This document shows, in pieces, positions 1 to 64,000 of a DNA stretch of 64,000 bases (its first letter is position 1; each line of letters opens with the position of its first letter). The notes under the pieces are model-generated. The model did not search any database. It saw only the letters and a program-made list of their open reading frames with translations, and was not told where the DNA came from. The position numbers and the translations under genes were made by a program. Source of the stretch: a virus (Duplodnaviria; Heunggongvirae; Uroviricota; Caudoviricetes). The stretch lies in IMG/VR virus record IMGVR_UViG_3300002498_000057, one strand, 5' to 3'.

Positions 1-260
1 ACAGAATATATATAGTTTTGTAAAGGTATAGATCCTAAATATACATTTACTATTCAAAAATAGTAGTTGATTTATGGTTATAATAATGTATGGAACAAGT
101 TTAAAACTAGTCTTGAACCACCAACCGAAATTCTAGATAGAGACCGTTGGAGCCTGTAATGGAAGATACTTTTAGTAAATATGGTAAAATTTTTCAAATA
201 AAGGTAATATCTGCTATTTTACTAGATAAACACTTCTTTTTACAGATATATGAAATATTA

Positions 261-1550
261 AAATGACAATATTTTTAGTTATAGTCATTACAATGATTAT
301 ATAAATAGATAAAATAGTATTATCTATAGTATAATAATCTGCCTACACTATAGGTATTAGCAATAAAGCTTAAGACCATATAGAGTCAAGTTACTAAAAT
401 AGCTAATGTAGATGTATTTAGATAGGTTATAAAAAATACAAAATCTGAAGATTTACAATATATTAAAGATTAGACTACAGAATTTTGTAAAAATCAAAAC
501 TTATGATAGTCATTACAGATAATTGCATAGTTAGCAAAGACAGCAAAGCGGGAAAAATACGATCAAATAAGATTAATTATGCAAAATGCTTTACAAGCTG
601 GAACAGATACTAATATAGGTCATGATTGAAATAACTAGCTTTAGGAAAGATATAATGTGTCAGTTCGGTATTGTACTGATTTGCCCTGACCAATTTTAAC
701 TGATATTACTAATGGTGGGTTGGCTAAGGGTCAATTAGGCGTCATCGTCGGATGTGCTGCCGGCGGAAAATCATGAATGTTAGCAGCTATCGGTGCATGA
801 GCTATTAAACATGGTAAAAATGTAATACACTATACTATATAGTTAAGTAAGTATTAGGTTGGGATGAGATATGATTCGTTACTTACCAATGTTCCAAGTC
901 AAAAATTATTAATTAAAAAATAGGACAACAGATAGACACTTGAGTCTAAATAGCTTGGTAAATTACTAATACAATATTATCCACCAAGACGAGCTTCAGT
1001 TAATACGTTGGCGGCCCATATAAAGGTTTGTTAGCTTACTTGAGGCGTACCAGATTTAATTATAATGGATTATGGTGATAAATTAACTGCAACCGTAGTA
1101 AAAGGACAATAGGGTAGTTATTGGCAGGGAGCTGATATATATGATGCGTTAAAAGCGTTAGCAGGTGAAATAAATGTTCCAGTATGAACAGCATCACAAT
1201 CTAATAAATCAGGAAATTAGACATAGATTATATAGGGTCATCAAATAGCAGAATCATATGCAAAAGTAATGATAGCCGATTTTGTCATGAGTATATCAAG
1301 AAGAGCCTAGGACAGATAGTCTGGTATAGCTAGAATACATATTATAAAAAACAGAATGGGTCCTGACGGATTAACATATCAAGCAAAAACAAATATGGCG
1401 ACTGGGCATATGTAGATATTTGAAAATAATACAATATAGAGTTTAAATGTTAAAAAGGGGTCAGCAGTATCACAGAACCAAAGTATTCAAAGACAAATAA
1501 TTAAGAAAATGCAATAGCAAAAATTACAATAGCAGTATAGCTAGTAGTAA
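261..1550 (+). CDS. dnaB: DnaB-family replicative helicase (recoded; start unresolved, first in-frame ATG at 579)
   Basis: Frame open from TAA at 258 to TAA at 1548. Walker A GGKSWMLAAIG (W=TGA). TIELS aligns to DnaB SLEM with E=TAG. C-terminal ADFVMSISRR...IHIIKNRMGP matches the DnaB RecA fold. Many in-frame TAG and 7 TGA. Confidence 0.7.
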
Positions 1551-1619
1551 CAATTTTATTGAATAAAACTTAAATTCATATATTTATTATTATAAGATAT
1601 AAATATTAGGAGAACGATA

Positions 1620-2555
1620 ATGAAAAATAATAGTAAAACAATACGACAATATATATAGAAATTAAATTAGGCTAGAGATACAACCCGTGTTTGAGATAAA
1701 CGATAGGGATGACGCGGCGATAAGCTTGGAACACCATACGAAAGAAAACATAATAAATATTTTAATGATTCAACTTTCCAAGATAATATGAAAACAATAT
1801 AGTGGTAGGATTTTATGGACTATTGTAAAAAAGATCCAATTTGAAATACGATTATATCTGGCGGAGAAAAATCTAATATATCTGGTAAGCTTCTTAAATT
1901 TTGTTTAAAAAAGCAAAAATAGTGAATGAAGGACAACACAACAATGTCACCAGACGGAGATGCCGTTTATCCAATTCAACCAGTACCAGAATCAGCGTAG
2001 TTGTAGTTTAAGTAGTTTATTTCTGATTATATACAATAGCATCAATCAATCAACACTCCATTATAGCAAGGATTAGATTATTGATTATCAGATCCAATAT
2101 TAAATAAACTTCATTATAAATACTGGGATAAAAATTTATAGTGAAGTACTAAGCAACAATAGTTTTAGAATCTAAAAGAATAGTATAATAATTTAACTAT
2201 TAAATACAAATAGTAGAAAAATAGTTATATACAAAATGAAATAAACGCATAGATTATTAGAAGTAAATATAGATTAAATGAGTTACTTAATATCTAGACT
2301 AAATTGACATCAATAAAGGATGAATTATATTTACAATTATAGAGTTTAGTATAGATATATAACGCTTCTCATAGTCAGACTATAGATAAACATGAAAGAG
2401 ATTTTATTTATAATTAGTTATTATTAGAAAAACCTAAACACTTTTCAGCTAAATATTATAAGACTCTACCATGAGACCCAGATTTAATTGATGATGTTGA
2501 CTAGTTTGATCCTAATAAAGACTATGATGGATTTGACGATTAGTAGGAAGAATAA
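1620..2555 (+). CDS. hypothetical protein with poly-acidic C-terminus (recoded)
   Basis: SD AGGAG + ATG; single frame to TAA with ~25 in-frame TAG and several TGA; no domain recognised. Confidence 0.4.
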
Positions 2556-2572
2556 ACAATAAAGAAGATTAA

Positions 2573-3193
2573 ATGTTAAGTGTATATAAAGGTATTTATG
2601 TCGTATGTAAACGTGGTAAAAATTTTAAAAATTATTTTGTCCATGTAATTAAAAAACTTATATTTGGATTTTATATATGTAAAATTTATAAAAAAAATAC
2701 CCAATATTATAATATACATGCATTAAAATATTTATAGAAATTTGTTAACATATAGATTAGAAAAACTACACAGTTGTCTGAATAGACTTCATTCTTAATA
2801 TCAACTATTGATAGATTAAAGCATAGTAAAATTACAAATTTAGTTAGATGTTTATCAAAACAAGATAATTCTTATATAGGTTGTCCATAGTATGTATTGA
2901 ACTTTATAAATATTGGAATAGATAAATTTTATTATTTATAGCAGTAGTTAAATATTTCGCAAATAGGATATAATTCATTACAAAAAAAATGATTTTTTAT
3001 TCAAAATAATAAAGTGTATTAGTTAGTGCATTGACATAATTTTCCACTACAACTAATACGATAGAAATTGTTATAGTTATATAAACCAGTATAGATTCCA
3101 AATATAAAATAGATTCTATTAAATACAGAAAAACAAAAATTACAAAAAGTACGATAGATTTTAAAAAATAAAAAGGATAATAAGGTAAAATAA
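2573..3193 (+). CDS. GIY-YIG-like endonuclease candidate (recoded), immediately upstream of nrdJ
   Basis: N-terminal KGIYVVCKRGKNFKNYFVHV resembles a GIY-(10)-YIG motif; frame open to TAA at 3191 using TAG/TGA as sense. Confidence 0.35.
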
Positions 3194-3196
3194 TAT

Positions 3197-5752
3197 ATGA
3201 TAAAAATGTAGTAGTTTTCAAAATATATATGATAGACAAATTATAAAGGACCAAACGATAATACAATATAGGACACTTGAAGAAGAATTGCAAAAACAGC
3301 AGCGTCGTTATAGAAAAATAAATAGTATTGATAGGAATAGTTTTATAATATATTATATAATTTTTAGGTTGTTCCCGGCGGTAGGATAAATGCAAACATT
3401 GGTATATAGTAGCGAAAAAATGCTAGTTTGTTTAATTGTTATGTTTATAACCCTCAAGATTTTGGAATAAAAGATATTGATAGTATATAGACAATTTTTA
3501 ATACTTTAAAGCAATCAGCAAAGATATTGGCTAGTTAGGGCGGGTTGGGTATAAATTTAAGTTGAATACGGCCCAACGGTTCATTTATACATGGTACGGG
3601 GGTAAGAACACCCGGCGTATTAAAATTTATGTAGTTGTGAGATAAGACGAGCTAGATAATAACATTAGGTAGTAATAAAAAAATTAGTGATAAATATAAG
3701 CATATATAGAAAAAAAAGATACGTAAAGGCGCGCTTATGGGTATCTTAGATATATGTCATGCAGACATTAAATAGTTTATAGTTGTAAAACAGAATGCAA
3801 ATGTTCTAACGAAATTTAATTTATCCATTATGATTTCTGATAAATTTATGCATGCCGTATAGAGTAATTAGGATTGATAGTTAAAATTTCCAGATACATA
3901 GTTTTAGAAATATAAAGAGTAGTGAGACGGTAACTTTCAAAAGTGATAGGATAATGGATATCCATTTATAGTTTTTTAGGTAGTAAAAGCAAAATAGTTA
4001 TGAGATATGATAATGATGTCAACATATAATAGAAATTAGCCAGGTGTATTATTTCTTGATACAATAAATAGATTAAACCCGGTAAGTTATTGCGAATACA
4101 TATGTTGTACAAATCCCTGTTCATAGATTCCGCAACCAAGTAATATTTGTAATTTATCAAATGTTAATTTAGTTAAATTTTTTAGTAAATAGACCGGATA
4201 GTTTTAGTTTGAAAAATTTGGAAAATACGTCGCAGTAATTGTTAGATTTTTAGATAATATATTAGACATCTCAACTATTCCAATACAATAGTATAGATAG
4301 CTTATTGAGGATAAGCGACGAATTGGAATTGGTGTCTTAGGTTAGGGCTCTCTATTATATATGATGAAAATGAGATTTGGGTCAAAATAGGCAATATAGT
4401 TTATAGATAAGTTGTTTAAATATAAATCATAGATATAGCATTTGACCTCAGCAAACCTTGGAAAATAGAAGGGGTCATTTAAGGCATTTGATAAATAGAA
4501 ATATTTTAACACATAGTATTGAAAAAGTTTGTAGATTTCCTAGAATATTAAACGTGAGATATAGAATATCGGTTATATGAGAAATTCAGTACATTCAACT
4601 TCAGCTCCAACAGGTAATACTGGAATATATGCCGGTGTAGTTTCTGGAGGAATATAGCCAGTAATAGAAAAAAGCGGTATAAGATGAGTTGTTGTTAATC
4701 AATAGTAGAAATTTAACCTATAGAAATATATCTTTCCAGATCCTCATAGGGGATAGTGATTTGAAACAAATTAGTTAAAATTTATCAAATGCGGGAATGA
4801 ATAGATATTATAGGGATATGTTGAAGATATAAAATATCGTATTGATAAAAACCGAGGAATGACAAAATAGGTTGATGTATAGGATTATGGCTGGGCGTAT
4901 GTTAAAAAGCATTATGATGATGCTTATAATAATAATTATATTGTATAGGCAAAATAGCTATCTGTATAGTAGCATATAAATATGTTAAAAGCTTCTGCTA
5001 AATATATAAATCAAAATCAATCAAAAACTGTAAATTTACCGTCGAGTTATACATTCGAAGATTTTAAAAATGTTTTCTACGATGCTTGAAAGAGTAATAT
5101 AAAGGGTATTACTACTTACCGTGATGGAACGATGGCAGCTGTTATATAGAAAAAGAAGTAGCAATAGTAGTATAAAACATAGTTATAGAGATTATTTGTA
5201 TAGTCTAACGGTAATGTTATTAAAGACTATGTTAAATTACCAAAATAGTTTGATTCAAAAACATATGTAGTTAAAGATGTAAATAATAAGAAATGGTACA
5301 TTACTTTAGGGTTTGCAGACAAAGCTTGTAAAAAACCATTTGCTATGTTTATAAGAACTAATGCACACATCGCAACAGATATAGCTAATACTACAATATA
5401 GGCAATATAGGATTTACTTAGACGCAAAGGAATTTCATAGCATTTAATTATATAGCAGCAATAGAAATATTTAAAACAAAATAATCTTGATAAAATTGCG
5501 AGAGCCATTGGAATGGCAATGAGACATAATGTTAAGATGATGGATATTGTAAGTGTATTAGAATAGTATAATGATGGATTATCTACAATACTATTTCATA
5601 TACGTAAACTATTAACTAAATTTATACCAGATGGAACTGTTGTTAATATTAATAATAATAAAGTAAAATGCATAGAGTGTGGACAATAGACAATAGTATA
5701 TTAGTCCGGGTGTAAAAATTGTAAAAGTTGTGGATGAACTGCATGTGGATAA
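3197..5752 (+). CDS. nrdJ: class II (adenosylcobalamin-type) ribonucleotide reductase NrdJ (recoded)
   Basis: Single 852-codon frame. Motifs PGGRINANIG, GGLGINLS.IRPNG...GTGVRTPGVLKFM and active-site NPCSEIP. C-terminal KGITTYRDGT and a Cys4 ribbon CIECG...CKNCKSCGWTAC with W=TGA. More than 60 in-frame TAG. Confidence 0.8.
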
Positions 5753-6045: not shown

Positions 6046-6660
6046 ATGGCAAAGAAAAAAAATGATTTAAAATAGATAAAGCAAGTAATATTATAGCAAT
6101 AGTAGTAGAGTACTTAGTAGCAAAAAGTATAGTAGTAGAAAGATAAATAGAATAATCCAGATAAAGGGTGCTTACTATTATAGCTATAGATTAAACATTG
6201 GGATAAATTATTAAAGGTATTTGTTCCAACTAAAGAAGATATATATAATGATAATACAGATGATTTTGGATATTCATAGACTCCACATATTACAATATTA
6301 TATGGATTCTTAGATAGATAGAATATTGATAAATAGAAATTACAATAGTATTTAATACCAACTGATAATATTAAACCTAAAATCACTGGTATGTCTTTAT
6401 TTGAATTATAGAAATATGATGTATTAAAATTTGATGTAGAATGTAAATAGTTAGTCAATATGAATAAGCAAATAGCTAAAAATTTCAAATATTCTAATGA
6501 CTATAGTAAATATATACCCCATATTACAATAGCATATTTATTACCTGGAACTGGAAAGAAATATGTTAAAAATATTAAATTATTTTATCCAAAAGTAAAA
6601 TAGTATATTTATAATTATAAAAATGTTGATACATAGTTAATTCCATTAAAACTAAAATAA
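6046..6660 (+). CDS. 2H phosphoesterase, LigT-like (2',3'-cyclic phosphodiesterase / 2'-5' RNA ligase family) with acidic N-terminal tail
   Basis: Two H-x-T-x motifs (TPHITILYG and IPHITIAYL) in one frame; N-terminal run of TAG (Glu) codons; TAA stop. Confidence 0.65.
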
Positions 6661-7071: not shown

Positions 7072-8979
<1,908 letters not shown>

Positions 8980-10397: not shown

Positions 10398-11468
10398 ATG
10401 GAAAGGTCATATTATTAGATACTGGGTGTTGATAAAACAGCTAATGTAGATTAGGTTAAAAAAGCTTATCGTAAACTAGCAATGTAGCACCATCCTGATA
10501 AGAACAATAATAATAAATAGTCATAGGATAAATTTAAATAGTTAAGTGAAGCATATGAAGTATTATCAGATCAACAAAAACGGCAACAATATGATATGTT
10601 TGGAAAAGGTGGAGTTAATACATCAAATATAAATGACATGTTTGGTCATGGATTTGGTTTTGAGTCTATATTTGATTCTATATTTAACCATAGAAATCCA
10701 TTTAATAGGCAACAACATCAACAACAACGAGTTGAAAAAAGTTAGGATCTTGTAATAGAAGTGTAGATAAATTTAACTGATACAGTATAGAATATTTAGA
10801 TTATTAAATAGATATAGTATAAAGTTAAGTGTAAAAAATGCAATGGAACAAAGTCATAGGATGGTAAAACTCATAATTGTACTACCTGTAATGGAACTGG
10901 TATAATTACAAGAGTTACTAATATGGGTTCAATGGTAATGCAACAGCAAATGACTTGTAATAGTTGCAATGGAGTTGGAAATGTTATATAGACCTTGTGC
11001 AGTAGTTGTAATGGAACTGGATTTTAGTTATAGAAAAAAAATATTAATATAACTATTCCAAGGGGTATAGAGTCTAATGTAAAACTTCAACTTAAAGACA
11101 TTGGAAATATTAATAAAGATAGGCCTGGTGATATAATTGTTATAATAAATGTAATTAATAACACAATATTTACTAGAGATAATAATAATTTAATATATAT
11201 TTACCCTATACAATATTATGATTTAATTCTTGGAACTAAGTTTATTTTAAAAACTATATATGATAAATAGCTTTAGATAACTATACCATCAGGGATTAAA
11301 GAGTCAATAAGTATACCTAATTAGGGCATATATAGTATATTTGTAAACAATAGTAATACTAGGGGTATATTACAAATAAATTTATAGTGTAAAATACCAT
11401 CAAAATAGTAGATTGAACAAAATTAGATTACATTATTATAGAACATAAAGGAGATCCGAAATGGATAA
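10398..11468 (+). CDS. dnaJ: co-chaperone DnaJ (J domain + Gly/Phe region + CxxCxGxG zinc-finger repeats), recoded
   Basis: SYY.ILGV..., [14 protein letters not shown] and [20 protein letters not shown]; four CxxCxG repeats ([31 protein letters not shown]); TAG at conserved Glu of DYYEILGV. Confidence 0.8.
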
Positions 11469-14059: not shown

Positions 14060-14131
14060 GGGTGACTCATCCAATGGTTAGGATCCTGGATTTCAACCCC
14101 AGTCATATGCGTTCGAGTCGTATGTCACCTG
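14060..14131 (+). tRNA. tRNA-Trp(UCA), opal-decoding
   Basis: Acceptor GGGTGAC/GTCACCT, anticodon loop TTTCAAC (UCA), T-loop TTCGAGT, discriminator G, CCA encoded. Confidence 0.85.
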
Positions 14132-17099: not shown

Positions 17100-17136
17100 A
17101 AAAATAATTGTGATAAATCTAGAGACTTAGATATAA
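17100..17136 (+). promoter_or_regulatory. conserved promoter motif copy 4 (inside TnpB right-end/omega-RNA region)
   Basis: TTGTGA 17107-17112, 18-nt spacer, TATAAT 17131-17136. Confidence 0.5.
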
Positions 17137-17941: not shown

Positions 17942-17949
17942 CCAGTATT

Positions 17950-18112: not shown

Positions 18113-18127
18113 TGATAAACATGTTGA

Positions 18128-49794: not shown

Positions 49795-51018
49795 ATGAGT
49801 AAAATGATAGAAATTACCGGTAAACATGGCTCTGCCAAAATCTTTACCAACAACATTGAGGAACAAGCCATTTCTCAGCTTTACAAAATTTTAAATAGCG
49901 AAGTTGCTATTGGTGCTAATTTGAGAATCATGCCAGATTGTCACGCTGGTGCAGGTTGTGTTATTGGTACCACTATGAAAATAACTGACAAAGTTATACC
50001 CAATTTTGTAGGAGTAGATATTTCATGTGGTGTTTTAGTTCAACAAATCAAAGATACTCATATTGAATTGGAAAAATTAGATAAAGTTATTCATCGAAAC
50101 GTTCCAAGTGGATTTGCTATCAATAACAAACCTCATCGTTGGGCTAATGATTGCCGAATTGGTGAATTAAAATGTAAAGACTTTGTAAATCTTAAACGTG
50201 CATATCTTTCTATCTCATCTCTTGGTGGAGGTAATCATTTTATATCCATAGAAAAAGATGATAACAATTGTCATTATTTAATAATTCATACTGGCTCAAG
50301 AAACATGGGCAAGCAAATAGCTGAATGCTATCAACAGGCTGCATATGATTTAATGACTAGCAAGAGAGAAATCTCTGATGAATTAATTAAGAAGCTTAAA
50401 AAAGAAGGTCGTGAAAAAGATATTAAAACTGAGTTGTCTAAAATTCAAATCATTCAAGTTGAGAAGTCTATGGCATATTGCTCTGGACAGTTAATGGATG
50501 ATTATTTGCATGATATGGCTATTGCCCAAGAATATGCTTCTCTTAATCGCAAGGCTATTGCAGATACTATTCAATGTGGTATGAGATGGAAGGTTGAAGA
50601 TGAATTTGAAACACTTCATAATTATATTGAAATGGATACTATGATATTACGTAAGGGAGCCGTATCTGCTAAGAAGGGTGAGAGATTAATAATACCTATT
50701 AATATGCAAGCGGGTAGTATTATTGCCACTGGGAAGGGCAATGAAGACTATAATTATTCTGCACCACATGGCGCCGGTAGACTTATGTCTCGTAAAGGAG
50801 CTAAGGAATCGTTATCAATGGACGACTTCAGAGAATCAATGAAAGGTATCTATACTACTTGTGTAATGAAAGATACTTTAGATGAATCCCCTATGGCGTA
50901 TAAGCCTATGCAAGAGATTATAGATAACATAGGTGATACTGTAGATATTGTTAAGATCGTTAAACCAGTATATAATTTTAAGGCTTCGGAAGAAGATGAT
51001 AGAAAGAAGAGGAAGTAA
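49795..51018 (+). CDS. rtcB: RtcB-family RNA 3'-phosphate/2',3'-cyclic-phosphate ligase
   Basis: MPDCHAGAGCVIGT, GVDISCGV, GGGNHF, APHGAGR; 407 aa; SD GAGGAT. Confidence 0.85.
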   Translation: MSKMIEITGKHGSAKIFTNNIEEQAISQLYKILNSEVAIGANLRIMPDCHAGAGCVIGTTMKITDKVIPNFVGVDISCGVLVQQIKDTHIELEKLDKVIHRNVPSGFAINNKPHRWANDCRIGELKCKDFVNLKRAYLSISSLGGGNHFISIEKDDNNCHYLIIHTGSRNMGKQIAECYQQAAYDLMTSKREISDELIKKLKKEGREKDIKTELSKIQIIQVEKSMAYCSGQLMDDYLHDMAIAQEYASLNRKAIADTIQCGMRWKVEDEFETLHNYIEMDTMILRKGAVSAKKGERLIIPINMQAGSIIATGKGNEDYNYSAPHGAGRLMSRKGAKESLSMDDFRESMKGIYTTCVMKDTLDESPMAYKPMQEIIDNIGDTVDIVKIVKPVYNFKASEEDDRKKRK

Positions 51019-54340: not shown

Positions 54341-54698
54341 AATGAAAAAAATCATGTTAATTACAGTGTTTATATTGATAGTTATATCTATCTATTCACA
54401 AGTTATTATTAATCCAGGAGTTTACGAAGGAACTGGAAATTGGCAAGCAAGAACAAGAGAAATTCATAAGTGGGTAGTAAATTCTGATGGAGCAATATTA
54501 ATATATATTAACAATCAAAGAATAGGTGATGTATTGTTTTATAGAACAGAAATTTATAACGGTAATGTATTATTAACAACTTGTTTAAAAACTGGTGATT
54601 CCGTTGATTACTATTATTTAATAAGAACAGGATCTGGCATTGAATTACAATTTTATCATAATCCAAATTACAGATTGATATTAAGGAAAATACAGTAA
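54341..54698 (+). CDS. hypothetical secreted protein (signal peptide)
   Basis: MKKIMLITVFILIVISIYSQ; SD AAGGAG. Confidence 0.45.
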
Positions 54699-54931
54699 TG
54701 AAACAGACATTTGTAGTTGATACTGAAGAAAATGTATTAGAGTTTGATCGTCTATTGAGATCTATTATTTCGTTGATTTTTCCAGACTGGAAAGAATACA
54801 TAATGGAACTGGCATACGAAATATCGGCAGATGAATATATACGATGCCTAGAATGTGAAGAACGAATTTACTATTTAGACAAGTTTTGTAGGCATTGTGG
54901 GCATGAAGTAAATAAAAATAAGGAAGTATAA
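54698..54931 (+). CDS. hypothetical zinc-ribbon protein
   Basis: CLECEERIYYLDKFCRHCGHE. Confidence 0.4.
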   Translation: MKQTFVVDTEENVLEFDRLLRSIISLIFPDWKEYIMELAYEISADEYIRCLECEERIYYLDKFCRHCGHEVNKNKEV

Positions 54932-54932
54932 A

Positions 54933-55337
54933 ATGGGAATTCAACAAATTCTTTTAATCGTACTGAGCATTATCATCGTCGGCGTAGCAATCACTGTCGG
55001 TATCAGCATGTATAACAATCAAAACCTCTCAACTGAAACATATGAATTAATAGCTTTAAGTAATAATTCTGAAATATCTGGAAAGTTCTTTATATTGAGT
55101 GGCACACTAGGAACTGAAAACATATATAAGTGTATGATAAAGTATAATGGTGGTTATAAAATGGTTACATTAAATCCAGATTATGCGACGATATATGAAA
55201 TTAATGATGGTTCAGTGCCCAGAATTGAAGGTAGATATAGTGAATATGATAAACAGTTTTCTATAATTAAAGAGATAAAAGTATATATTCCTACTAATTC
55301 AATATTAAATAAATTTGAAATTGATGTTTCAAAGTAA
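54933..55337 (+). CDS. hypothetical membrane-anchored protein (paralog of 53918)
   Basis: N-terminal TM; C-terminal YIPTNSILNKFEIDVSK. Confidence 0.45.
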   Translation: MGIQQILLIVLSIIIVGVAITVGISMYNNQNLSTETYELIALSNNSEISGKFFILSGTLGTENIYKCMIKYNGGYKMVTLNPDYATIYEINDGSVPRIEGRYSEYDKQFSIIKEIKVYIPTNSILNKFEIDVSK

Positions 55338-55350
55338 TGGGTGATATAAA

Positions 55351-56181
55351 ATGAAACTAATAGTTTTAGGCGCAGGTTCAGCATTTTCAATGAAGCAGTA
55401 TCAATCTAACTTTTTATTAGATTTTGATGGATATAAAATGCTTTTTGATTGTGGTGGAGATATACGATGGGCATTAAAAGAACAAGGATTAAATGTTAAT
55501 GATATAGATGGAATAGCGATATCGCACTACCATAGCGACCATATCGGTGGACTTTAGTGGGTAGCTTTAAATAGGTTCTTTAATAAATCATTACCAAAAC
55601 CTGATTTATACATTTCTGAAAACTTAGTTGATGATTTATGGTCAGATTGTTTAAAGGGTGGTTTATCCACATATCAGGGTTGTGTATTACGATTGCATGA
55701 CTATTTTAATATTATAGCAATTCCAGAAAATGAAACAATATCGATAGTTAATAATGATGATGAATTTGTAGGTTGGGCTATGACTCCTGTTCAAACAGTT
55801 CATATTATGTCTGGATATAAAATCATGCCTTCGTATGGTATTATACTTGAGAGAAATCCACAAATACTGGGTTCAAAAATATATAAAATAAATAAATTAT
55901 ATATAACTTCAGATACACAATATTGTCCATATCAAATCAGAGATTTCTACGCAAGTGCGGATTTGATATTAGAAGATTGTGAAACTGCTGAATTTAAATC
56001 ACATGTTCATGCTCACTATGAAGATTTAAAAACATTAGAACCAGGATTCAAAAATAAGATGTGGTTATATCATTATAATGATCAACCTTGGGGCTGTGCA
56101 TCATTCGAAGCAATGCAACAAATGGCACAGCATGATGGATTTTTAGGGTTTTTAAGGCAAGGTCAAGTGCTAGAGATATAA
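55351..56181 (+). CDS. MBL-fold metallo-hydrolase, RNase Z-like, with a single in-frame TAG at 55555
   Basis: VLGAGSAFS...LFDCGGDI and SHYHSDHIGGL[TAG]WVAL; the frame joins track ORFs 55351 and 55693 into one 276-codon CDS. Confidence 0.65.
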
Positions 56182-56648
56182 ATGAAAATAACAGATAAGG
56201 CTTCAATATTTTATTATTGTGAATAGTAGATATTATTATCAGTTCTTAATAATTATATTCATAAAAAGCATATAATGGATTAGACTTTAACAGTTTAGTT
56301 GATAAGAACATATTAGAAATCAGTTTTAATGAACGAGTATATTGTTAACGGTATACAAATTTGGTATGTATTATTCAACTTGGGAGCAAATGATAATGTC
56401 ATTTAAAATAGAATATTGAGTTTGGTTTTTGGCGGCTGGTTATTATCATACTGGCTATGATAGGCGCACGTCTTACCACTAATATCTATAGTGTGCTCTT
56501 TGGCGGCCATGATCTAAGACAATAATAGATACAACTAACTTTGTAATAATTATTGAATACGTACCTATCAATAGAACAACATTTTTTAAAATATACCAAG
56601 ATGACAAAAAGTATATGAATTTCATATGAAGCTTGAGGAGTAATAGTT

Positions 56649-57104
56649 ATGTGTCTATATATTAAAAGAAGGTTTTGGACAAAGGTTAAGAATACATTTG
56701 GTGTTTATGATACAACAAAAGATAGTTTATCAGTATATGTTGTTAGGCATGTAGACGAGGATAATGCAATTTCATCTCCATTTCACGGTGATTATATATG
56801 GGAAATTGGAAAAACCTTTGCAATAAAAAAAATTAAACATAAAATTTATAAATTGTGTGGAGTTGAATATATTACATTTGGATGGTTTCACAGTGTTAAA
56901 TTGTTTAAAGATGCAAATGATTTAAAGCTAATGTTATATGAGAACTCAAATTATCATTTGACAAAGGGTGCAAGATTGAAAATTTATAAAGCAGAAATTC
57001 CAGCAAGCACAATATTCTATAATGGATCATTTGATACAGAACGGGGATGTATGCCATCAATAGCATCAAAAAAATTAAAGCTTATTGGGGAAGTTAAATG
57101 TTAA
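56649..57104 (+). CDS. hypothetical protein
   Basis: ORF with SD GGAG. Confidence 0.4.
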   Translation: MCLYIKRRFWTKVKNTFGVYDTTKDSLSVYVVRHVDEDNAISSPFHGDYIWEIGKTFAIKKIKHKIYKLCGVEYITFGWFHSVKLFKDANDLKLMLYENSNYHLTKGARLKIYKAEIPASTIFYNGSFDTERGCMPSIASKKLKLIGEVKC

Positions 57105-57304
57105 GAGAATGTACATATTGTAATAAGACTTTTGATAGGGGTAAAGCTCGTGTTGAGGATGATTGCTATAGTGAAATTTGTGATAGTTGCTTTGAGTTAT
57201 TGACAGAGTATAACAATACACATCCAGTAACAGATAAAGAAAAAATTGAATATATGATAAATAAATTAGAGCTGGATAAAACTAAAAACTTAACATATTT
57301 ATAG
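57098..57304 (+). CDS. hypothetical small Cys-rich protein
   Basis: ORF overlapping the previous stop. Confidence 0.35.
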   Translation: MLRECTYCNKTFDRGKARVEDDCYSEICDSCFELLTEYNNTHPVTDKEKIEYMINKLELDKTKNLTYL

Positions 57305-57539
57305 AATGTCAATTATCAAATACAAAATAATTGTAAGTTCTATAATATAGCTGGATTATACTATTTTGTCCATAATCATGCAACAGCAAGATTTAATGAA
57401 ATGTCACCAATGAGAAAAATGATGCAATCATCTATTGTCTATGCTCCATTAACATTTGAATTTAAGAAGAATAGATGGCAATTGGATAATAGTGTTAAAT
57501 ATATATACAATATTAGTAATAATAAGTTTGAGGTTATGG

Positions 57540-58310
57540 ATGAACATAGGAATATATCCAACTAAAAGATGCAATTTAAAGTGTGCACATTGTATGCACG
57601 ATTGCTCACCAGAAAACAATGAAGAAATGACTATAGCCCAATTACATTATATGTATAAATTTATTCATTGGTGCCACACATAGGTTATTAAAGTAGATCA
57701 GATATGTATTAGTGGTGGTGAACCATTTCTATATACACATATTACTAGATTATTAACACGTATTAAAGATATTTCAACACAATTAAATATACCATTTTCA
57801 ATTTGTACTAATGGAACTATACCATATAGATATACAACTGGATTTTTGGAGTTAGACTTAGATTTTGTATGCAAAGTAGTTAGAATATCATCATCAATTT
57901 TTCACGATGCTCAACTTAAATAGAGAAAGTTAAGACAATATTTTTCAGAATTTACAAATATGTGTCAATAGCCAGTGATTCATAGGGTTGTAAGAATAAG
58001 TGATAAAGGTAGAGCAAAGGATTTAATTACTAATGATCCTAATAAATACTATGATGGTGGATTAATATGTTTCAATAAAAACCATATTGGTATTAATTTT
58101 AAGCCAAAGTTTATTTCATTTTGCTCTGAAGATGATAGTGAAATAGATTCATACAAATATTTATACTATTAGGATTTAAGTTCATTGCATATGGATGAAA
58201 TAACTTCATTTAGAACAATTATAACTAAAGCATATGAATTTCATGGAAGAAAGATAGCAGGATTGTGTGGTAATAAATGTAAACATTATACAATAAAAAA
58301 TTCAAAATAA
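57540..58310 (+). CDS. radical SAM protein (recoded, 4 in-frame TAG)
   Basis: CNLKCAHCMHD (CxxxCxxC), ISGGEPF; SD GAGGTTATGG. Confidence 0.65.
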
Positions 58311-58326
58311 GAAACATTGGAAACAA

Positions 58327-59103
58327 ATGATTAAAAAACAAAACGCTGGAATATATGATCAATTCTACACCAAGCCATAGGTAGCTAAAGCTTTAATTAA
58401 AAATATAGATATATCAAAGTATGAGTTAATAATATAGCCATCTGCTGGTAATGGTAGCTTTAGTAAGCAAATAAAGAATTGTATGGCTTATGATATAGAC
58501 CCAAAAGATTAGTCAATAATTAAGGGTGATTATCTATAGATGCAGATCATAACTAATCCATAGAAAACTTTAGTTATTGGTAACCCCCCCTTTGGTAGGC
58601 AATCCTCTCTAGCATTTAAGTTTATAAAAAAGTCCATGCTAATTGCCGATACGGTGGCATTTATATTACCAAAATCCTTCAGAAAGGTATCATATATAGA
58701 TAGAGTACCATTAACTCACTAGTGTGTCTTATAGATTGATCTGGATGATAATTCATTCATTGTAGATAGTAACTAGTACTCTGTTCCATGTGTCTTTCAA
58801 ATATGGGAAAGATGTACTATAAACAGAATAAAACATAGTAACTATCATACAAATGATTTTTAGTTCTGTAGTAAGAAATAGGCGCAATTATCAATTAGAC
58901 GTGTTGGGTGGTATGCTGGAATTGTGTATAGTGATATAGATAAATCATAGAGCTCATTTTATTTTGTGAAGTAGAAGAATAAAGATATTAATTATATCAA
59001 ATAGAAGTTATAGAGCATTGATTATAATGATGTGAAGGATAATTCAGCAGGAATACGCACCATATCAAAAAGATAGATAATAATGAAATACGTGGGAGAA
59101 TAA
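58327..59103 (+). CDS. N6-adenine DNA methyltransferase (recoded)
   Basis: FYTKP.VAKALI (motif I region) and VIGNPPFGRQSS (motif IV NPPF); about 14 in-frame TAG. Confidence 0.65.
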
Positions 59104-59341
59104 TATGAGAAAAAACACATTGTGTTCATTCGTACATCCAGATATCGTAAACTAGGATAAATATCCATATCCCTTTAAGCATGGTGATCAGTTTATTTAT
59201 CTTGGTGATATACGCGGAATGAGGGGGCATGGAATATTTGTTCATAGAAAAACTAATCTAGTTTATTCTGGATATTACACTTAGAACTTTATAAAGGCTT
59301 TGAAATAGATGTTTCAAACTAAAGATATCTGAGAAATTATT

Positions 59342-59806
59342 ATGAATAAAATATTAAAGCTTATATCAAATTTGCTTTTTGAAATAAAGTGGGTTTTTCT
59401 CAGACCTTTTTGTTTAATATATGATATACCAAAAATAATCAAATTCAACAAAAAAATTGATTTACTCCCAGATCAAGAATCTTGGCATATAACTGAATCG
59501 CACTATGGATTTAAATGTAAAGTTGGTGACATTGTTGAATATGATTATCAAATAGGTTATTATGATCATAAAAGATATAAGCCCGGATATTGTATTGTAT
59601 TGGATGTCACTAAAAAGATGATGAAGAAAGGCATTGATTGTGCTTTGCCGGGTTTACATGGATTTTATGGTAAATGGTATGGAGAAGACATTATGAATGA
59701 AAAGTCTTATGGCAAAATACATATGCTATGCGATACATTTTATCAACTTAAAGTTATTGGTAATGTTAATGATAACCCAGAACTTATTAAATATATTGCA
59801 GACTAA
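59342..59806 (+). CDS. hypothetical protein
   Basis: ORF. Confidence 0.4.
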   Translation: MNKILKLISNLLFEIKWVFLRPFCLIYDIPKIIKFNKKIDLLPDQESWHITESHYGFKCKVGDIVEYDYQIGYYDHKRYKPGYCIVLDVTKKMMKKGIDCALPGLHGFYGKWYGEDIMNEKSYGKIHMLCDTFYQLKVIGNVNDNPELIKYIAD

Positions 59807-59910
59807 GGAGTAAAATAATGAATTTATTCAATGAAATAATGAAAAATGATATGCTACCATGCATTTATACAGTGTGCATAGCTATTGATCCAGAAGCAAA
59901 TAAGATTTTA

Positions 59911-59948
59911 AAATAATTGTGATAAATAACTATAATCTAGATATAATT
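59911..59948 (+). promoter_or_regulatory. conserved promoter motif copy 13
   Basis: TTGTGA 59918-59923, 19-nt spacer, TATAAT 59943-59948. Confidence 0.6.
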
Positions 59949-59967
59949 AAATAAAGGAGGTACACTT

Positions 59968-60153
59968 ATGAAAAAATTATCAATAGGTAATTGGTTCGTA
60001 ATTATAGTTGCAGTAATTATTGCATTTATTTGTGTTTATGGCATATTCTTTAATTCAAATGTCATTGATTTCAAAAAGCATAATACAGTAGATACAATTC
60101 AGGTCATAACTGATTATGCCGAACCTGTAATTGATACAACCGTGGTTAAGTAA
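59968..60153 (+). CDS. hypothetical small membrane protein
   Basis: SD AAGGAGGT. Confidence 0.4.
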   Translation: MKKLSIGNWFVIIVAVIIAFICVYGIFFNSNVIDFKKHNTVDTIQVITDYAEPVIDTTVVK

Positions 60154-60211
60154 TACTAAAGTGGTCTGTAGGTAAATTATAACTATATCTATAGACCACC
60201 TATTTTTGCTC

Positions 60212-60249
60212 AAAATAATTGTGATAAATACCAAAAATCTAATTATAAT
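60212..60249 (+). promoter_or_regulatory. conserved promoter motif copy 14
   Basis: TTGTGA 60219-60224, 19-nt spacer, TATAAT 60244-60249. Confidence 0.6.
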
Positions 60250-60280
60250 ATAATTATATTTAAGAAAAAGAGGTTATACC

Positions 60281-60763
60281 ATGAAACAATTAAAAGATCA
60301 ATTTGTTACCGTAACATATGCAAGGGCTGTAAGTCAACCATCTGGTAGTGTTAGGGGTAAAAAACAAACATATAAAGCATTGGTGTTAAATGTAACTGAT
60401 ACTACAATATCGGTACGTATGATAAAGTCTCAATGTTATGTTGATATATTATATAAAAAATGCGGTTATAGTGTAACCCACCCAGATTTTATTAAATTTA
60501 TGAAAGATTGTCGTAATGCATTAAATATTGGATATACTATACAAGAAACTGGTGTAGTATCGATTCCATTAAATATTACCTTTTCAATAGAATCGTTTAA
60601 AAAAATGAATCCTATTATCATTAATAAAAATACATTATCTAAAGATGAATTATTAATACTTGAAGATCAAATTCAAATAATGCACAAAGATTTAGCACAT
60701 TCTTGTTGGTTTGATAATGATAACGATTGTATGAGATGGTACAGAAAATATATTCCAAAATAA
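60281..60763 (+). CDS. hypothetical protein
   Basis: SD AGAGGT; stop lies inside the next promoter motif. Confidence 0.45.
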   Translation: MKQLKDQFVTVTYARAVSQPSGSVRGKKQTYKALVLNVTDTTISVRMIKSQCYVDILYKKCGYSVTHPDFIKFMKDCRNALNIGYTIQETGVVSIPLNITFSIESFKKMNPIIINKNTLSKDELLILEDQIQIMHKDLAHSCWFDNDNDCMRWYRKYIPK

Positions 60764-60794
60764 TTGTGATAGTTTGAAGTCGTATAAATATAAT
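60757..60794 (+). promoter_or_regulatory. conserved promoter motif copy 15
   Basis: TTGTGA 60764-60769, 19-nt spacer, TATAAT 60789-60794. Confidence 0.6.
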
Positions 60795-60820
60795 TAATTT
60801 ATATTTAAAAGGAGACGACA

Positions 60821-61891
60821 ATGAAATTATCAGAATCTAATATAACTATACTTAATGATCATATTACTAATGGTAATATAAGAGTTGCAAAGCATCCAGA
60901 TTATGAATTATACTTATATAAATATACTCAGCAATGTGTATTTAATGGTATATGGGATGATGTTACATTAATGTGTAGAGGTTTAGTATTAGATAATGAA
61001 TATAATATCATTGCAAATTGTATTCCAAAGTTTTTTAATTATGAAGAATTAAATCAAGTAAGAGTTCCAAATATTAATTTAAATCAGGCTTTTACAATTA
61101 CACGAAAAGACGATGGAAGTTTAATTCAAATATTCATGTATAAAAATAATTTAATAACAACTTCATCTGGTGGATTTTGTAATGACTATACAAAAAAAGC
61201 TGAAGAATTACTTAGTACAAAATACAAACATATTATTCCAATAATTACAGATTCACCAGATTTAAATTTTATATTTGAAATGATTTCTCCATTAACTAAA
61301 GTGGTTATAAACTATGAGGATACTGAAGAATTAAGACTAATAACTATTAGAGATATGGATGGACTTGAATTTTCTAGGTTTATTGAATGGTGTAAAACTC
61401 AAGGATTTGATTATGTCCAGGAAGAGAAATTTTACTCTATAGTCCAGTTATTAGTAGAAAAAGTATCAGAGTTTAAAAATATCGAAGGTTATGTTATAAA
61501 GTTTGAAGATGGGCAACGTGTAAAGTTTAAGTATGATGAATATTTTACATTACATAAAACAATAGCTCATGTAAGTAAAAAGTTTGTATGGGAAGCATTA
61601 GCTAATAATATAGATTTAAACTTAGAAAATATTCCAGATGAAACATTTAAACAGATTAAACAATGGAAAAAAGAACTTGAAGATGAATTTAATTTTATTG
61701 AAGATGCAGTTGTAAAGGCTAATAGGCGGGTGTCTATTGCATCAATAAATGGAGTCTTCAATAGAAAGCAACAAGCAGAATTTATCTTAAAAAATTATAA
61801 AGAATACTCTCAAATGCTATTTGCTATGTTAGACGATAGAGATATTGAGCCTATGATATGGAAAAAAATTAAACCAAGTAATGAGGACTAA
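60821..61891 (+). CDS. Rnl1-family ATP-dependent RNA ligase (T4 RnlA-like)
   Basis: Motif I ITRKDDGSLIQIF (compare T4 KEDGSL), motif IV EGYVIKFEDG, motif V RVKFKYDEY; 356 aa; SD AAGGAGA. Confidence 0.7.
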   Translation: MKLSESNITILNDHITNGNIRVAKHPDYELYLYKYTQQCVFNGIWDDVTLMCRGLVLDNEYNIIANCIPKFFNYEELNQVRVPNINLNQAFTITRKDDGSLIQIFMYKNNLITTSSGGFCNDYTKKAEELLSTKYKHIIPIITDSPDLNFIFEMISPLTKVVINYEDTEELRLITIRDMDGLEFSRFIEWCKTQGFDYVQEEKFYSIVQLLVEKVSEFKNIEGYVIKFEDGQRVKFKYDEYFTLHKTIAHVSKKFVWEALANNIDLNLENIPDETFKQIKQWKKELEDEFNFIEDAVVKANRRVSIASINGVFNRKQQAEFILKNYKEYSQMLFAMLDDRDIEPMIWKKIKPSNED

Positions 61892-62281
61892 TGGTAAATA
61901 TACAATCTGAATTAGTATATTAGGTTAGATAGACGTCTGATTTAATAATGATAAAAGTATAGAATTGTCATGTAAATTGTTTTAAAAATAAAAACATTTT
62001 AACATTTTAGTGGTACCGTGATGGTGTGTAGAATGTGTATAAATATATTTATATTGCATATGATATATAGTTAAAATTAACAAAAACAAATATAGAAAAT
62101 TTAATTGTTAGTTATCAGGATTCATACAATAAATTAAATTTAAATAAATTATATATGAATAATGTTATTATTAATTTTTATAATTACAAATTAAAGGATA
62201 GTGGAGTATTATCATTTTCAATTCAATTTGATAATGATATTAGTAAAGTTATAACTATCAAACTAAAATAAGGAAGATAAA

Positions 62282-62557
62282 ATGAATATTAAATTTAGGT
62301 ATTTTGGTGATACCAGCATATCAAAAGGCACTGGTAAAATTGTTGTAGCGTATGATGATTTTAAGCGATGTGGAATTGCATTTTGCAATCCTAACGATGT
62401 ATATAGTAAGAAGACAGGTAGAAGTATTGCAGCGTATAGATTACTTAGTAATCCAATTAAAGTATTAAAAGATGATATGTCATATGGAGATTGGATTGAT
62501 TTGTTTCTAGATGCAACTCATGCACCAAATTGGTTATATCGGGATCAAACAATTTAA
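62282..62557 (+). CDS. hypothetical protein
   Basis: SD AAGGAAGAT. Confidence 0.4.
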   Translation: MNIKFRYFGDTSISKGTGKIVVAYDDFKRCGIAFCNPNDVYSKKTGRSIAAYRLLSNPIKVLKDDMSYGDWIDLFLDATHAPNWLYRDQTI

Positions 62558-62756
62558 CATGCATACTGATAAAAATAGAATATATGTTGGTGTTGGAAAT
62601 TGAACTTTAACAGCATAGTATAATAAAGTGTTATAGGATATTATTAATTATATTCATACCAATATATGTTATGATGATGAGGATTGAAGTAACTTATAGA
62701 AGTTAGAATAGTTTATTAAATCTAAGAAAAAACAATAATATCAGGTGTAAATGGAT

Positions 62757-62794
62757 ATAAAAATTGTGATAATTTGCACAACACAACATATAAT
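62757..62794 (+). promoter_or_regulatory. conserved promoter motif copy 16
   Basis: TTGTGA 62764-62769, 19-nt spacer, TATAAT 62789-62794. Confidence 0.55.
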
Positions 62795-62821
62795 AAAATT
62801 AATAAACAAAAAGAGGTTATT

Positions 62822-63118
62822 ATGAAATTCAATTATTTATGGTTCGCTATTCCAAAAACTGGAAAACAGGTTAGAGTAACTATTGCGTATGCTAATAATC
62901 AATATGCATTTGCCGTTCAAAGCCCAAATGACATGTTTGTTAAATATCTTGGACGTGAATTAGCTATTAGAAAGTATAATACTGGTAAAGTATATTATAC
63001 TCAAGAATCTACATGGAAAAGAATTAAAGAATCGTTTTTACAATTACTTATTTCCGATAAGTGTCTTCATAATGATATTCCAGACTTCTTAAAAGCCGCG
63101 TTTCTACTAACCAGGTAA
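62822..63118 (+). CDS. hypothetical protein
   Basis: SD AAGAGGT + ATG at 62822 (the track ORF starts upstream at 62774). Confidence 0.45.
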   Translation: MKFNYLWFAIPKTGKQVRVTIAYANNQYAFAVQSPNDMFVKYLGRELAIRKYNTGKVYYTQESTWKRIKESFLQLLISDKCLHNDIPDFLKAAFLLTR

Positions 63119-63124
63119 ATAATT

Positions 63125-63517
63125 ATGCTATATCAACAAAATATTAAAGACCAATTAAGACAGAAAAAAATTACTATAGCTATAATTAAGCAGTATATTC
63201 AATCTAAATTAAATACTAACGATAGGTGGATGTACACAGCTTTAATAAGATTATATAGTAAACAAACTCTTGAAGAACAAACTTTTGATGAATCATTAGA
63301 AATAAATAATCAAGGGTTTAGTAGTGCTGATGCAGAATTATTATCTAGTTATGCAAAACAATATGAAAGTAAAAAGTTTTTAACACCAAAGCAAAAACAT
63401 TGGTGTAGAACTAAAATACTTAAGTATTGGGAGCAGATTTGGAATATATCAGATCAAGAAAGAATGATAGATTTAATTGAAAAGGAGAATAATGATGATC
63501 AAATGCTCTGTGTGTAA
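63125..63517 (+). CDS. hypothetical protein
   Basis: ORF. Confidence 0.4.
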   Translation: MLYQQNIKDQLRQKKITIAIIKQYIQSKLNTNDRWMYTALIRLYSKQTLEEQTFDESLEINNQGFSSADAELLSSYAKQYESKKFLTPKQKHWCRTKILKYWEQIWNISDQERMIDLIEKENNDDQMLCV

Positions 63518-63680
63518 TCAACCTATTGAAAGGCTACCATATGATTAGATTAAAAACAAATCTAATTATTGTGATAACTGTGCAACTCTTGAACATATTG
63601 CAAATAAATTTAAGTGTATAGATAATATAGATAATAACATTATTGGCAAATTTTCAATATTTAAATCAAATGAAGACAAT

Positions 63681-63917
63681 ATGTTACTTATATGTGGATG
63701 GAATTTAAAAAACGAATTCTATTGGGATTATATACCAGTTCAAGAATATTTACTATCATATCAATTGCATGGAGAAAAAATGAAAGTTCAAGATAAAAAA
63801 AGAAAAATTAAACGAATAGTATATATTACAAAGTGTCCAGATTGTAATAAAGAAAACTGTAAGCTTAGACAATTATGTGGTAGTATTCCAGATGAATGCC
63901 CACTAGACACTATTTAG
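63681..63917 (+). CDS. hypothetical small Cys-rich protein
   Basis: ORF. Confidence 0.3.
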   Translation: MLLICGWNLKNEFYWDYIPVQEYLLSYQLHGEKMKVQDKKRKIKRIVYITKCPDCNKENCKLRQLCGSIPDECPLDTI

Positions 63918-64000
63918 GAATAATTTGTGAAATATTTAAATTCAATAGAGATACCACTACTATAGTTTATAAAATTATATGGTATATAGTTATATGAAAA

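Follow-up and report, generated by a model that had tools for sequence, protein, structure and literature searches.

Stop codon recoding in phages is, to our knowledge, known only as TAG read as glutamine, TGA read as tryptophan or TGA read as glycine, with one codon changed at a time. Borges et al. observed only the change of TAG to Gln and of TGA to Trp, and Al-Shayeb et al. left 'TAG to X' open for one huge phage. The stretch described here, the 64,000 nucleotides of IMG/VR virus record IMGVR_UViG_3300002498_000057 (the window), uses both codons as sense codons: it is near certain that TAG encodes glutamate, that TGA encodes tryptophan and that TAA is the sole stop. This code assignment is supported by four independent lines, namely alignment columns, amino acid composition, the tRNA complement and related genomes. 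The window lies inside ENA contig ERZ27315036:k141_100919 (256,585 bp), and the sequence analysed comprises the window and flanking contig, 94 of 257 kb in all.

Phages with NCBI translation table 15 (Lak megaphages and crAss-like phages; Borges et al., Peters et al.) resemble this one in several respects. They have in-frame TAG in conserved genes, a phage tRNA(CUA), a coding density that collapses under the standard code and a mixture of genes with and without the recoded codon, and the idea of a code switch during infection has been raised for them. Unlike in those phages, TAG stands for Glu and not Gln in the window, TGA is also recoded, and TAG is used far more heavily: it accounts for 70% of the Glu codons in recoded genes and for as much as 10% of the codons of a gene. 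TAG is also found in replication and chaperone genes and not only in late ones, no gene for release factor 2 (RF2) was seen, and a gene for glutamyl-tRNA synthetase (GluRS) adjoins. The phages with TGA=Trp (table 4 type; some crAss-like phages, 'Agate') likewise have TGA at conserved Trp positions and a phage tRNA(UCA), but they keep TAG as a stop whereas TAG and TGA are both sense codons here.

The same pair of assignments is found in the nuclear code of Blastocrithidia (table 31), and TAG=Glu also in that of peritrich ciliates (table 30); both are eukaryotic nuclear codes in which TAA is Glu as well, with a dual role as stop in Blastocrithidia, whereas TAA is never in-frame in the window. 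TGA=Trp agrees with table 4 but TAG as stop does not, TAG=Gln of table 15 was not found, and table 31 agrees in TGA and TAG but not in TAA as Glu or in the eukaryotic nuclear genome. An engineered Escherichia coli (PMC11903333) is reported to have TAA as its one stop and two freed codons read by dedicated tRNAs, as here. That system is synthetic, with release factors deleted or engineered and non-canonical amino acids, whereas the window system is natural and viral, keeps to canonical amino acids and has to share the cell with a host of standard code. The full-text literature searched gave no report of TAG=Glu in a phage or prokaryote, nor of joint TAG and TGA recoding in a phage; other journals could hold one. 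A preliminary description made from the letters alone had called the code unusual for a phage or bacterium, which agrees with the literature searched, where the same assignments are known from the Blastocrithidia nuclear code.

The codon meanings were read from alignment columns in three conserved proteins:

159-1550, + strand: DnaB-like helicase, recoded (Pfam DnaB_C, phrog_19); 31 TAG, 9 TGA, 1 TGG
3197-5752, + strand: class II ribonucleotide reductase NrdJ, recoded (120 homologues, 40-53% identity); 74 TAG, 14 TGA, 2 TGG
7072-8979, + strand: DnaK, recoded; 23 TAG, 0 TGA

In a Codetta-style test the three proteins were translated with TAG and TGA masked, each was aligned to about 100 homologues with an ordinary Glu and Gln composition, and for every codon the log-odds of each amino acid were summed over the aligned columns. 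TAG, with 126 columns pooled, scored +104.8 nats for Glu; Asp came out at -85.8, Lys at -108.4 and Gln below both. TGA, with 23 columns, scored +60.5 nats for Trp and -29.1 for Tyr. Glu was obtained from each protein alone (NrdJ +79.4, DnaK +10.5, DnaB +14.8), and Trp from NrdJ (+51.0) and DnaB (+9.5). As a control, all 42 of the 42 other codons with at least eight columns decoded to their standard meaning. In columns conserved to at least 70%, TAG is on Glu in 31 of 39 cases (Lys 4, Asp 3, Leu 1) and GAA in 21 of 25 (Asp 2, Gly 1, Gln 1), so the fidelity of TAG to Glu is about that of GAA itself. TGA is on Trp in 13 of 14 well-conserved columns.

Single positions in further genes give the same picture:

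10398-11468, + strand: DnaJ, recoded; 24 TAG
27803-29623, + strand: IS607-type TnpA (serine recombinase) and TnpB; in-frame TAG and TGA in both
36426-37040, + strand: EF-Ts, recoded; 10 TAG
40384-41691, + strand: phage phosphoesterase/exonuclease (phrog_284), recoded; 33 TAG
44085-45134, + strand: T4 Rnl2-type RNA ligase; 0 TAG, 1 TGA at a conserved Trp; promoter motif 21 nt upstream

The sole TGA of the Rnl2-type ligase (w in DIwVVTIKIHGSNF) aligns with a Trp of T4 Rnl2. The conserved part of DnaK has 13 TAG sites: nine are at Glu columns, two at Lys and one each at Asp and Ser, and at three of them all 108 homologues have Glu. When the phosphoesterase is compared with five homologues from cultured phages, TAG falls on Glu in four invariant columns and on Asp and Gly in one invariant column each; overall its most frequent partner is Glu. 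Against the EF-Ts of Thermus thermophilus alone, TAG is paired with Glu three times and with Asp, Ala, Arg, Leu and Lys once each.

The preliminary description had read TGA as Trp and TAG most probably as Glu, and both readings stand. It did not mention the two gene classes, the promoter motif, the neighbouring GluRS, the relatives mis-translated with code 15, or TGA as a stop in the one relative checked. A code inference and a count of residues at TAG columns, of the kind it proposed as checks, gave Glu as the predominant residue in DnaK and NrdJ, and its figure of 10 acidic sites among 13 in DnaK is the nine Glu and one Asp above. The examples it gave were confirmed at codon level: TGA at the Trp of the Rnl2 motif, of TnpB GYNKQwKTD and of NrdJ SCGwTACG, and TAG at the Glu of DnaK VVeVL, KIeLS, GIeTV and QGeRP, DnaJ SYYeILGV, DnaB TIeLS and EF-Ts MLeMRCDSDF. 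TAG is also the abundant sense codon it had described, as the counts for NrdJ (74), DnaB (31), DnaK (23) and DnaJ (24) show.

An ordinary code 15 amber recoding, with TAG=Gln and TGA=Trp in addition, would be a rival explanation. In phages, amber codons have been reported as reassigned to Gln only, and TAG=Gln was assumed by the pipelines that translated the contig and its relatives. A few TAG sites are indeed in Gln-rich columns (NrdJ 836, DnaK 610 and 618), and with a separate tRNA-Gln(UUG) encoded in the window a Gln route exists. However, Gln at TAG scores -51.9 nats in NrdJ and -34.4 in DnaK, where Glu is positive, although these alignments do return Gln for CAA and CAG. Use of TAG anticorrelates with that of Glu codons and not with Gln, and TAG is borne by invariant Glu columns, catalytic or structural. 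At the level of the alignments this explanation is already refuted, and we give it next to no probability.

Amino acid composition leads to the same assignment. There are 466 in-frame TAG codons in 76 open reading frames (ORFs), conserved sequence carries on beyond them, and in many genes they make up as much as 10% of codons. In 62 ORFs of at least 100 amino acids, the percentage of TAG is negatively correlated with that of GAA/GAG (Spearman rho -0.66, p 4e-9) and is unrelated to those of Gln, Asp and Tyr. Counting TAG as Glu lowers the between-gene coefficient of variation of Glu from 0.56 to 0.35, and the coefficient goes up when TAG is counted with any other residue. TAG also clusters in acidic runs, such as those at the N-terminus of the LigT-like protein and in the tail of ORF 1620-2555 (...DDeeEE).

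The coding layout fits TAA as the only stop. Under the standard code, ORFs of at least 100 codons cover only 22 kb with both strands taken together, whereas ORFs bounded by TAA alone tile the + strand, which is purine-rich and carries essentially all genes; 78% of the window (27.6% GC) is in such ORFs of at least 60 amino acids, with a median gap of 17 nt. That a gene ends in TAA is true by construction for those containing TAG or TGA and is informative only for the 28 ORFs of at least 80 codons that have neither and read the same under the standard code; all 28 stop at TAA, with a chance of about 1e-5 if stops were used as in relative L001 described below (14 TAA, 7 TGA). The earlier claim that TAA is the only terminator is thus upheld. 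Of the features of stop-codon-recoded phages as defined by Borges et al., in-frame stops in conserved genes, denser coding under the new code and cognate suppressor tRNAs are found here. Public gene calls for k141_100919 assume TAG=Gln and break at every TGA, so that NrdJ is in fragments. On the contig some 0.3 kb ahead of the window, the public annotation has an FtsH-type Peptidase_M41 fragment (L002 2612-3088), which is probably another gene split by TGA.

It could be asked whether TAG and TGA are ambiguous or conditional, acting as stops or being misread early on or while suppressors are scarce, and being read as Glu and Trp later, with perhaps more than one amino acid at some sites. RF1 and RF2 of a standard-code host must compete for these codons, about 20% of the conserved TAG columns are not Glu, a phage transfer-messenger RNA (tmRNA) could rescue ribosomes that stall or terminate at either codon, and several genes finish with ...TAG TAG TAA or ...TAG TAA. 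But TAG is spread evenly along the length of genes with no bias to the 3' end, and the non-Glu fraction is the same as for GAA. Genes with 31-74 TAG codons would need near-complete read-through to give any product, and conserved C-terminal motifs such as the zinc ribbon of NrdJ lie beyond the last TAG or TGA. An ambiguous code is accordingly judged unlikely.

The genes fall into two classes that interleave gene by gene. The recoded class (31 genes) has 440 TAG, 162 GAA and 28 GAG codons, which makes TAG 70% of its Glu codons, and 66% of its Trp codons are TGA. The other class (33 genes) has no TAG, and TGA makes up 15% of its Trp codons. Glu content including TAG is 8.8% in the recoded and 6.2% in the TAG-free genes. 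The relative synonymous usage of the other 56 codons is correlated between the classes at r=0.98, which shows that the TAG-free genes are native and not recent imports. DnaB, NrdJ, the LigT/Acb1-like protein, DnaK, DnaJ, a Nudix protein, EF-Ts, a ribonuclease H-like protein, the phosphoesterase, a methyltransferase and the IS607 TnpA and TnpB are recoded; TAG-free genes include those for the TROVE/Ro60-like protein, RlaP, Rnl2, SIR2, Band-7, RtcB, Rnl1 and DUF932 proteins, and the gene for an Apyc1-like protein has a single TAG. Borges et al. also describe the recoded codon as enriched in late (structural, lysis) genes and avoided in early ones; in the window, which has no structural or lysis genes, TAG and TGA are avoided in promoter-proximal, RNA-repair and anti-defence genes, and replication genes are heavily recoded. 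Members of both classes that are not given above are:

6046-6660, + strand: 2',5' RNA ligase (LigT) / Acb1-like, recoded; 21 TAG, many in the acidic N-terminal run
58327-59103, + strand: putative N6 DNA methyltransferase, recoded; 15 TAG
20963-22330, + strand: TROVE/Ro60-like RNA-binding protein; 0 TAG, 0 TGA, TAA stop
42856-43881, + strand: RlaP RNA-repair nucleotidyltransferase; 0 TAG, 0 TGA
46022-46819, + strand: SIR2-family protein; 0 TAG, 0 TGA
49795-51018, + strand: RtcB RNA ligase; 0 TAG, 0 TGA
55324-56181, + strand: Apyc1-like (anti-Pycsar) metallo-beta-lactamase-fold protein; 1 TAG, 1 TGA
60821-61891, + strand: T4 Rnl1-type RNA ligase; 0 TAG, 0 TGA

Mobile elements also use the private code of the phage, because in-frame TAG and TGA are found in the IS607-type TnpA and TnpB (27803-29623) and in the TnpB-like ORFs at 15422-16986 and at L004 13214-14632 in the flanking contig.

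ARAGORN and Rfam searches identified 28 intact tRNAs and a tmRNA in the window. The tRNAs cover 18 amino acids and the anticodons CUA and UCA, and the specificities missing are exactly Glu(UUC) and Trp(CCA).

17326-30333, + strand: tRNA array; outliers at 6937, 14060 and 36312 bring the intact tRNAs to 28 in total
17326-17400, + strand: tRNA(CUA), reads TAG (ARAGORN; Rfam RF00005 51.5 bits, gathering score 29)
14060-14134, + strand: tRNA(UCA), reads TGA (ARAGORN; Rfam RF00005 43 bits, gathering score 29)
25929-25985, + strand: tRNA-like element, defective and without an acceptor stem, whose anticodon loop is CCA (Trp) (Rfam 33 bits over model positions 10-63 only)
18128-18484, + strand: phage tmRNA (Rfam 94.7 bits; tag frame ...VNDNLLQAA, read by eye, with TAA end)

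We infer that tRNA(CUA) is a Glu-inserting amber suppressor and tRNA(UCA) a Trp-inserting opal suppressor. The discriminator base of tRNA(UCA) is G73, as in bacterial tRNA-Trp; similarity typing of this tRNA against annotated phage tRNAs gave nothing useful. The identity set of E. coli tRNA-Glu consists of G1-C72, U2-A71, U11-A24, U13-G22..A46, no residue 47 and U34 U35 C36 A37, and the body of tRNA(CUA) has U11-A24, U13.G22, a 4-nt variable loop, G1.U72, G2-C71 and A73. The nearest full-length matches of tRNA(CUA) in annotated phage genomes are all tRNA-Glu, with weak E-values of 0.2-0.6. Typing tRNA(CUA) as Glu by its D-arm and variable loop was considered and dropped to weak, because a tRNA-Ile(UAU) has the same features and 4-nt loops are common in the array. 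No relative of tRNA(CUA) was found in two IMG/VR scans, and a degenerate scan of metagenome contigs gave 40 loci but no relative, about 30 of them being one eukaryote-type tRNA and a few belonging to unrelated phage arrays.

Both suppressors have an A31.C39 mismatch in the loop-proximal pair of the anticodon stem (2 of 2, compared with 0 of the 26 other tRNAs; about 1 in 378 by chance). In known read-through tRNAs with 4-bp anticodon stems it is the top pair, 27-43, that is lost, whereas in the phage suppressors it is the bottom pair, 31-39, that is mismatched. In Blastocrithidia, UGA decoding relies on a mutant eRF1 and on a near-cognate tRNA-Trp(CCA) whose anticodon stem lacks its top pair; the two suppressors of the window phage are by contrast fully cognate.

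Several other elements were seen among the tRNAs. The ends of the remnant at 25929-25985 are unable to pair; it shares its 3' half with tRNA-Leu(UAG) at 23436-23514, which suggests recombination within the array. A 127-nt tRNA with anticodon GAU at 25530-25656 has a 58-nt insertion in the variable region (Rfam 46 bits) and was missed by ARAGORN. A 23S rRNA-like fragment (bacterial positions 2127-2214) at 25060-25172, within the array, scored 36.5 bits, under the gathering score. Weak Y RNA-like matches (Rfam YrlA) at 19799-19864 and 20044-20158 (33 and 37 bits, E 7e-4 and 6e-5, gathering score 69) lie between a promoter motif at 19416 and the TROVE/Ro60-like gene, just upstream of the latter. 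The arrangement may be a phage Rsr/Y-RNA module, next to the tmRNA and the array of tRNAs. In metagenomes, the eukaryote-type tRNA mentioned above was found on about 30 contigs (among L006-L045) of 23-46% GC; it is near-invariant (TCCTCGGTCGTTCAATGGTTAGGACATCGGACTCTAAATCCGAGAACC...), with a tRNA-Glu-like body and a CUA anticodon, and it probably stems from protists with TAG as a Glu codon, unrelated to the phage.

The distribution of the two gene classes is associated with a promoter motif. The sigma70-like motif TTGTGATAA-N13/14-TATAAT (TTGTRATAA-N13/14-TATAAT) resembles -35 and -10 elements and has 17 matches in the window, all on the + strand, compared with 0.52 expected; none of 100 shuffles reached 17. 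The first gene within 100 nt downstream of a motif is TAG-free in 10 of 13 cases, compared with 37 of 91 other genes (Fisher p 0.018), and TAG-rich genes are often found further along the same run after a motif. Three of the matches are of particular relevance for tRNA(CUA) and GluRS:

17285-17314, + strand: promoter motif TTGTGATAA-N13-TATAAT; ends 12 nt before the mature 5' end of tRNA(CUA)
17108-17137, + strand: tandem second promoter copy upstream of tRNA(CUA), from the motif scan
62764-62794, + strand: last promoter motif in the window; nearest motif upstream of the GluRS gene

A second sequence, CTCCATATATATTA, was considered as a late promoter and rejected. It precedes two of the IS607/TnpB-type elements, and its only two occurrences are both at the ends of such elements.

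The gene for GluRS is found just outside the window:

64238-65584 in window-equivalent positions (L004 11114-12460), 238 bp past the window end: bacterial-type GluRS of 448 amino acids (NCBIfam TIGR00464 gltX_bact)

It scores 348.3 bits against gltX_bact (cut-off 289.95), has the HIGH and KMSKS motifs (MHIGN and KLSKR), and contains no TAG, no TGA, 23 GAA/GAG and 6 TGG codons before a TAA stop. Bacterial GluRS reads the anticodon through its C-terminal part. In the phage protein the profile match ends at position 372 of 470 and alignments to PDB structures at residues 311-323; the last 125 or so residues align to no solved GluRS, and no Pfam match to an anticodon-binding domain was found in the last 139 amino acids even at E=10. 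The C-terminal anticodon-binding part is too divergent for known models. With a gene free of TAG and TGA, the gltX_bact match and this divergence of the anticodon-reading end, GluRS is the prime candidate for charging tRNA(CUA). The ORF right after it (L004 12432-12812, window-equivalent 65556-65936) has 24 TAG and 10 GAA/GAG in 126 codons, about 27% Glu if TAG=Glu.

The codon meanings would be the same if the host GluRS charged tRNA(CUA), being non-discriminating and tolerating the change at position 36, with the phage GluRS merely boosting the supply of Glu-tRNA. The behaviour of non-discriminating GluRS and of the GatCAB amidotransferase behind this explanation is established, and tRNA(CUA), which has G1.U72 and not U1-A72, would escape GatCAB. 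Borges et al. saw few phage synthetases matched to suppressors and proposed charging by the host, and in the relatives inspected there is no GluRS within 10 kb of NrdJ. On the other hand, the only synthetase seen in 94 kb is a GluRS, with a gene that avoids both recoded codons and an anticodon region diverged beyond recognition, in a phage without a tRNA-Glu(UUC) for such an enzyme otherwise to serve. Charging by the host is a possibility to be taken seriously, but the less probable of the two routes.

Comparisons with related sequences show that TAG=Glu is not restricted to the window. Among the homologues of NrdJ in the protein collection, the closest 21 contain 2-6% Glu and 6-10% Gln, with 'Gln' in columns otherwise at least 80% Glu. 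In one of them, from relative L001 (NCBI GCA_036681025.1, a 159-kb contig of 25% GC), TAG codons account for 53 of the 70 'Gln' residues of NrdJ, and the column test gives +51 for TAG=Glu and -32 for Gln, with CAA decoding as Gln. A closer syntenic relative, L046 (Logan SRR27710297), with 72% nucleotide identity, has an NrdJ with 71 TAG, 8 TGG and a single TGA. Since the relatives show TAG on Glu columns, TAG=Glu is a property of the clade that has been mis-translated in databases. TGA differs: in L001 it is a genuine stop and TGG encodes Trp, and L046 encodes Trp almost only as TGG. TGA=Trp is therefore an extra step taken, or far advanced, in the lineage of the window. The NrdJ of several relatives (L046 2-2644; P0004, P0012, P0014, P0017) contains intein and HNH insertions (Pfam Intein_splicing), whereas the copy in the window is intein-free.

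The preliminary description had taken the sequence for a virus of prokaryotes, and this holds. PHROG families, T4-type RNA ligases, the Apyc1 and Acb1-like genes, the 256.6-kb contig and the base-hypermodification genes of relatives point to a phage. A megablast of 22 kb against 50,697 deposited phage genomes gave no DNA-level match. A reduced bacterial symbiont, another extrachromosomal element or a chimeric assembly of two codes would be in line with the cellular-type genes (DnaK, DnaJ, EF-Ts, tmRNA, 28 tRNAs, GluRS and the FtsH fragment), with the two gene classes and with the window, in which no capsid, terminase, other structural or lysis gene was found. However, the 94 kb lack genes for rRNA, ribosomal proteins and RNA polymerase, HNH endonucleases are found together with the phage-type genes named above, and homologues occur in cultured phages. 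Relative L001 carries phage thymidine-hypermodification genes, and the two gene classes interleave with almost identical codon usage. A chimera is contradicted by independent JGI and ENA assemblies that are identical base for base: JGI contig 3300001567, Draft_10006676 (9.6 kb) is 100.000% identical to positions 54390-63996 and covers both gene classes. For this reason, and because relatives from NCBI, Logan, ENA and JGI share the TAG=Glu signal, the sequence is not an assembly artefact. A non-phage origin is very improbable.

With regard to the host, the nearest cellular DnaKs are from Cloacimonadota (62-64% identity), which may be a weak hint. That early-type genes avoid TAG and TGA and that TGA is a stop in the relative checked both argue for a host with the standard code.

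The explanation that we consider likely is a phage genome with a late-acting one-stop code in two dialects, in which early genes are written in the standard code and the phage itself drives the switch. The host RNA polymerase would fire the early, sigma70-like promoters, and standard-code proteins including the phage GluRS would be made along with the suppressor tRNAs. About a third of the genes, those without TAG or TGA, would be readable by the unmodified standard-code host. tRNA(CUA) would then be charged with Glu, most probably by the phage GluRS, and tRNA(UCA) by the tryptophanyl-tRNA synthetase of the host. RF1 and RF2 would be outcompeted at TAG and TGA, and the recoded genes would become translatable, which they would not be in the absence of the suppressors. 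Every gene would end at TAA, which is recognised by both release factors.

Several points weigh against this explanation. No release-factor gene or anti-release-factor function that would account for near-100% reading of the 74 TAG codons in NrdJ was seen in the 94 kb of the contig. The amino acid at TAG is deduced from alignments, and a minority of TAG codons are on conserved non-Glu columns (Lys 4, Asp 3, Leu 1 and Ser488 of DnaK), which could reflect substitutions but equally a degree of ambiguity. The body of tRNA(CUA) does not identify it as a Glu tRNA, because its D-arm and variable-loop features are common to the phage tRNA-Ile(UAU), and it is without G1-C72 and U2-A71 of E. coli tRNA-Glu and has an anticodon other than UUC. 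Three of the 13 promoter-proximal genes contain TAG. The proposed pairing of GluRS with tRNA(CUA) is guilt by association: aminoacyl-tRNA synthetases are carried by many jumbo phages, GluRS was not found in relatives in scans of IMG/VR and JGI metagenomes, no promoter motif is within 150 nt of the GluRS gene, and two TAG-containing ORFs separate it from the nearest motif.

More tentatively, and with slightly more doubt than belief, the phage could represent an AT-rich jumbo phage clade with a natural orthogonal pair, a remodelled GluRS and tRNA(CUA), in which one lineage has added TGA=Trp. As part of that same tentative proposal the code might act as a translational lock, with early genes in the code of the host and all others readable only after the phage has reprogrammed decoding.

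The finding has consequences for annotation. Gene callers offering only tables 11, 4 and 15 fragment the genome, with NrdJ split at each TGA, and hundreds of Glu positions are given as Gln in 21 or more related phages, which corrupts protein databases and structure predictions. For the biology of phages, TAG=Glu means that viral amber reassignment is not limited to the easy route via glutaminyl-tRNA synthetase, and together with TGA=Trp it gives a natural genome with one stop codon, a state otherwise reached only by engineering. The TAG-free GluRS and the promoter-driven tRNA(CUA) are a compact candidate for a natural orthogonal pair and are of interest for genetic code expansion. The split between genes in host code and genes in phage code is tied to a promoter motif, which makes the code-switch hypothesis directly testable.

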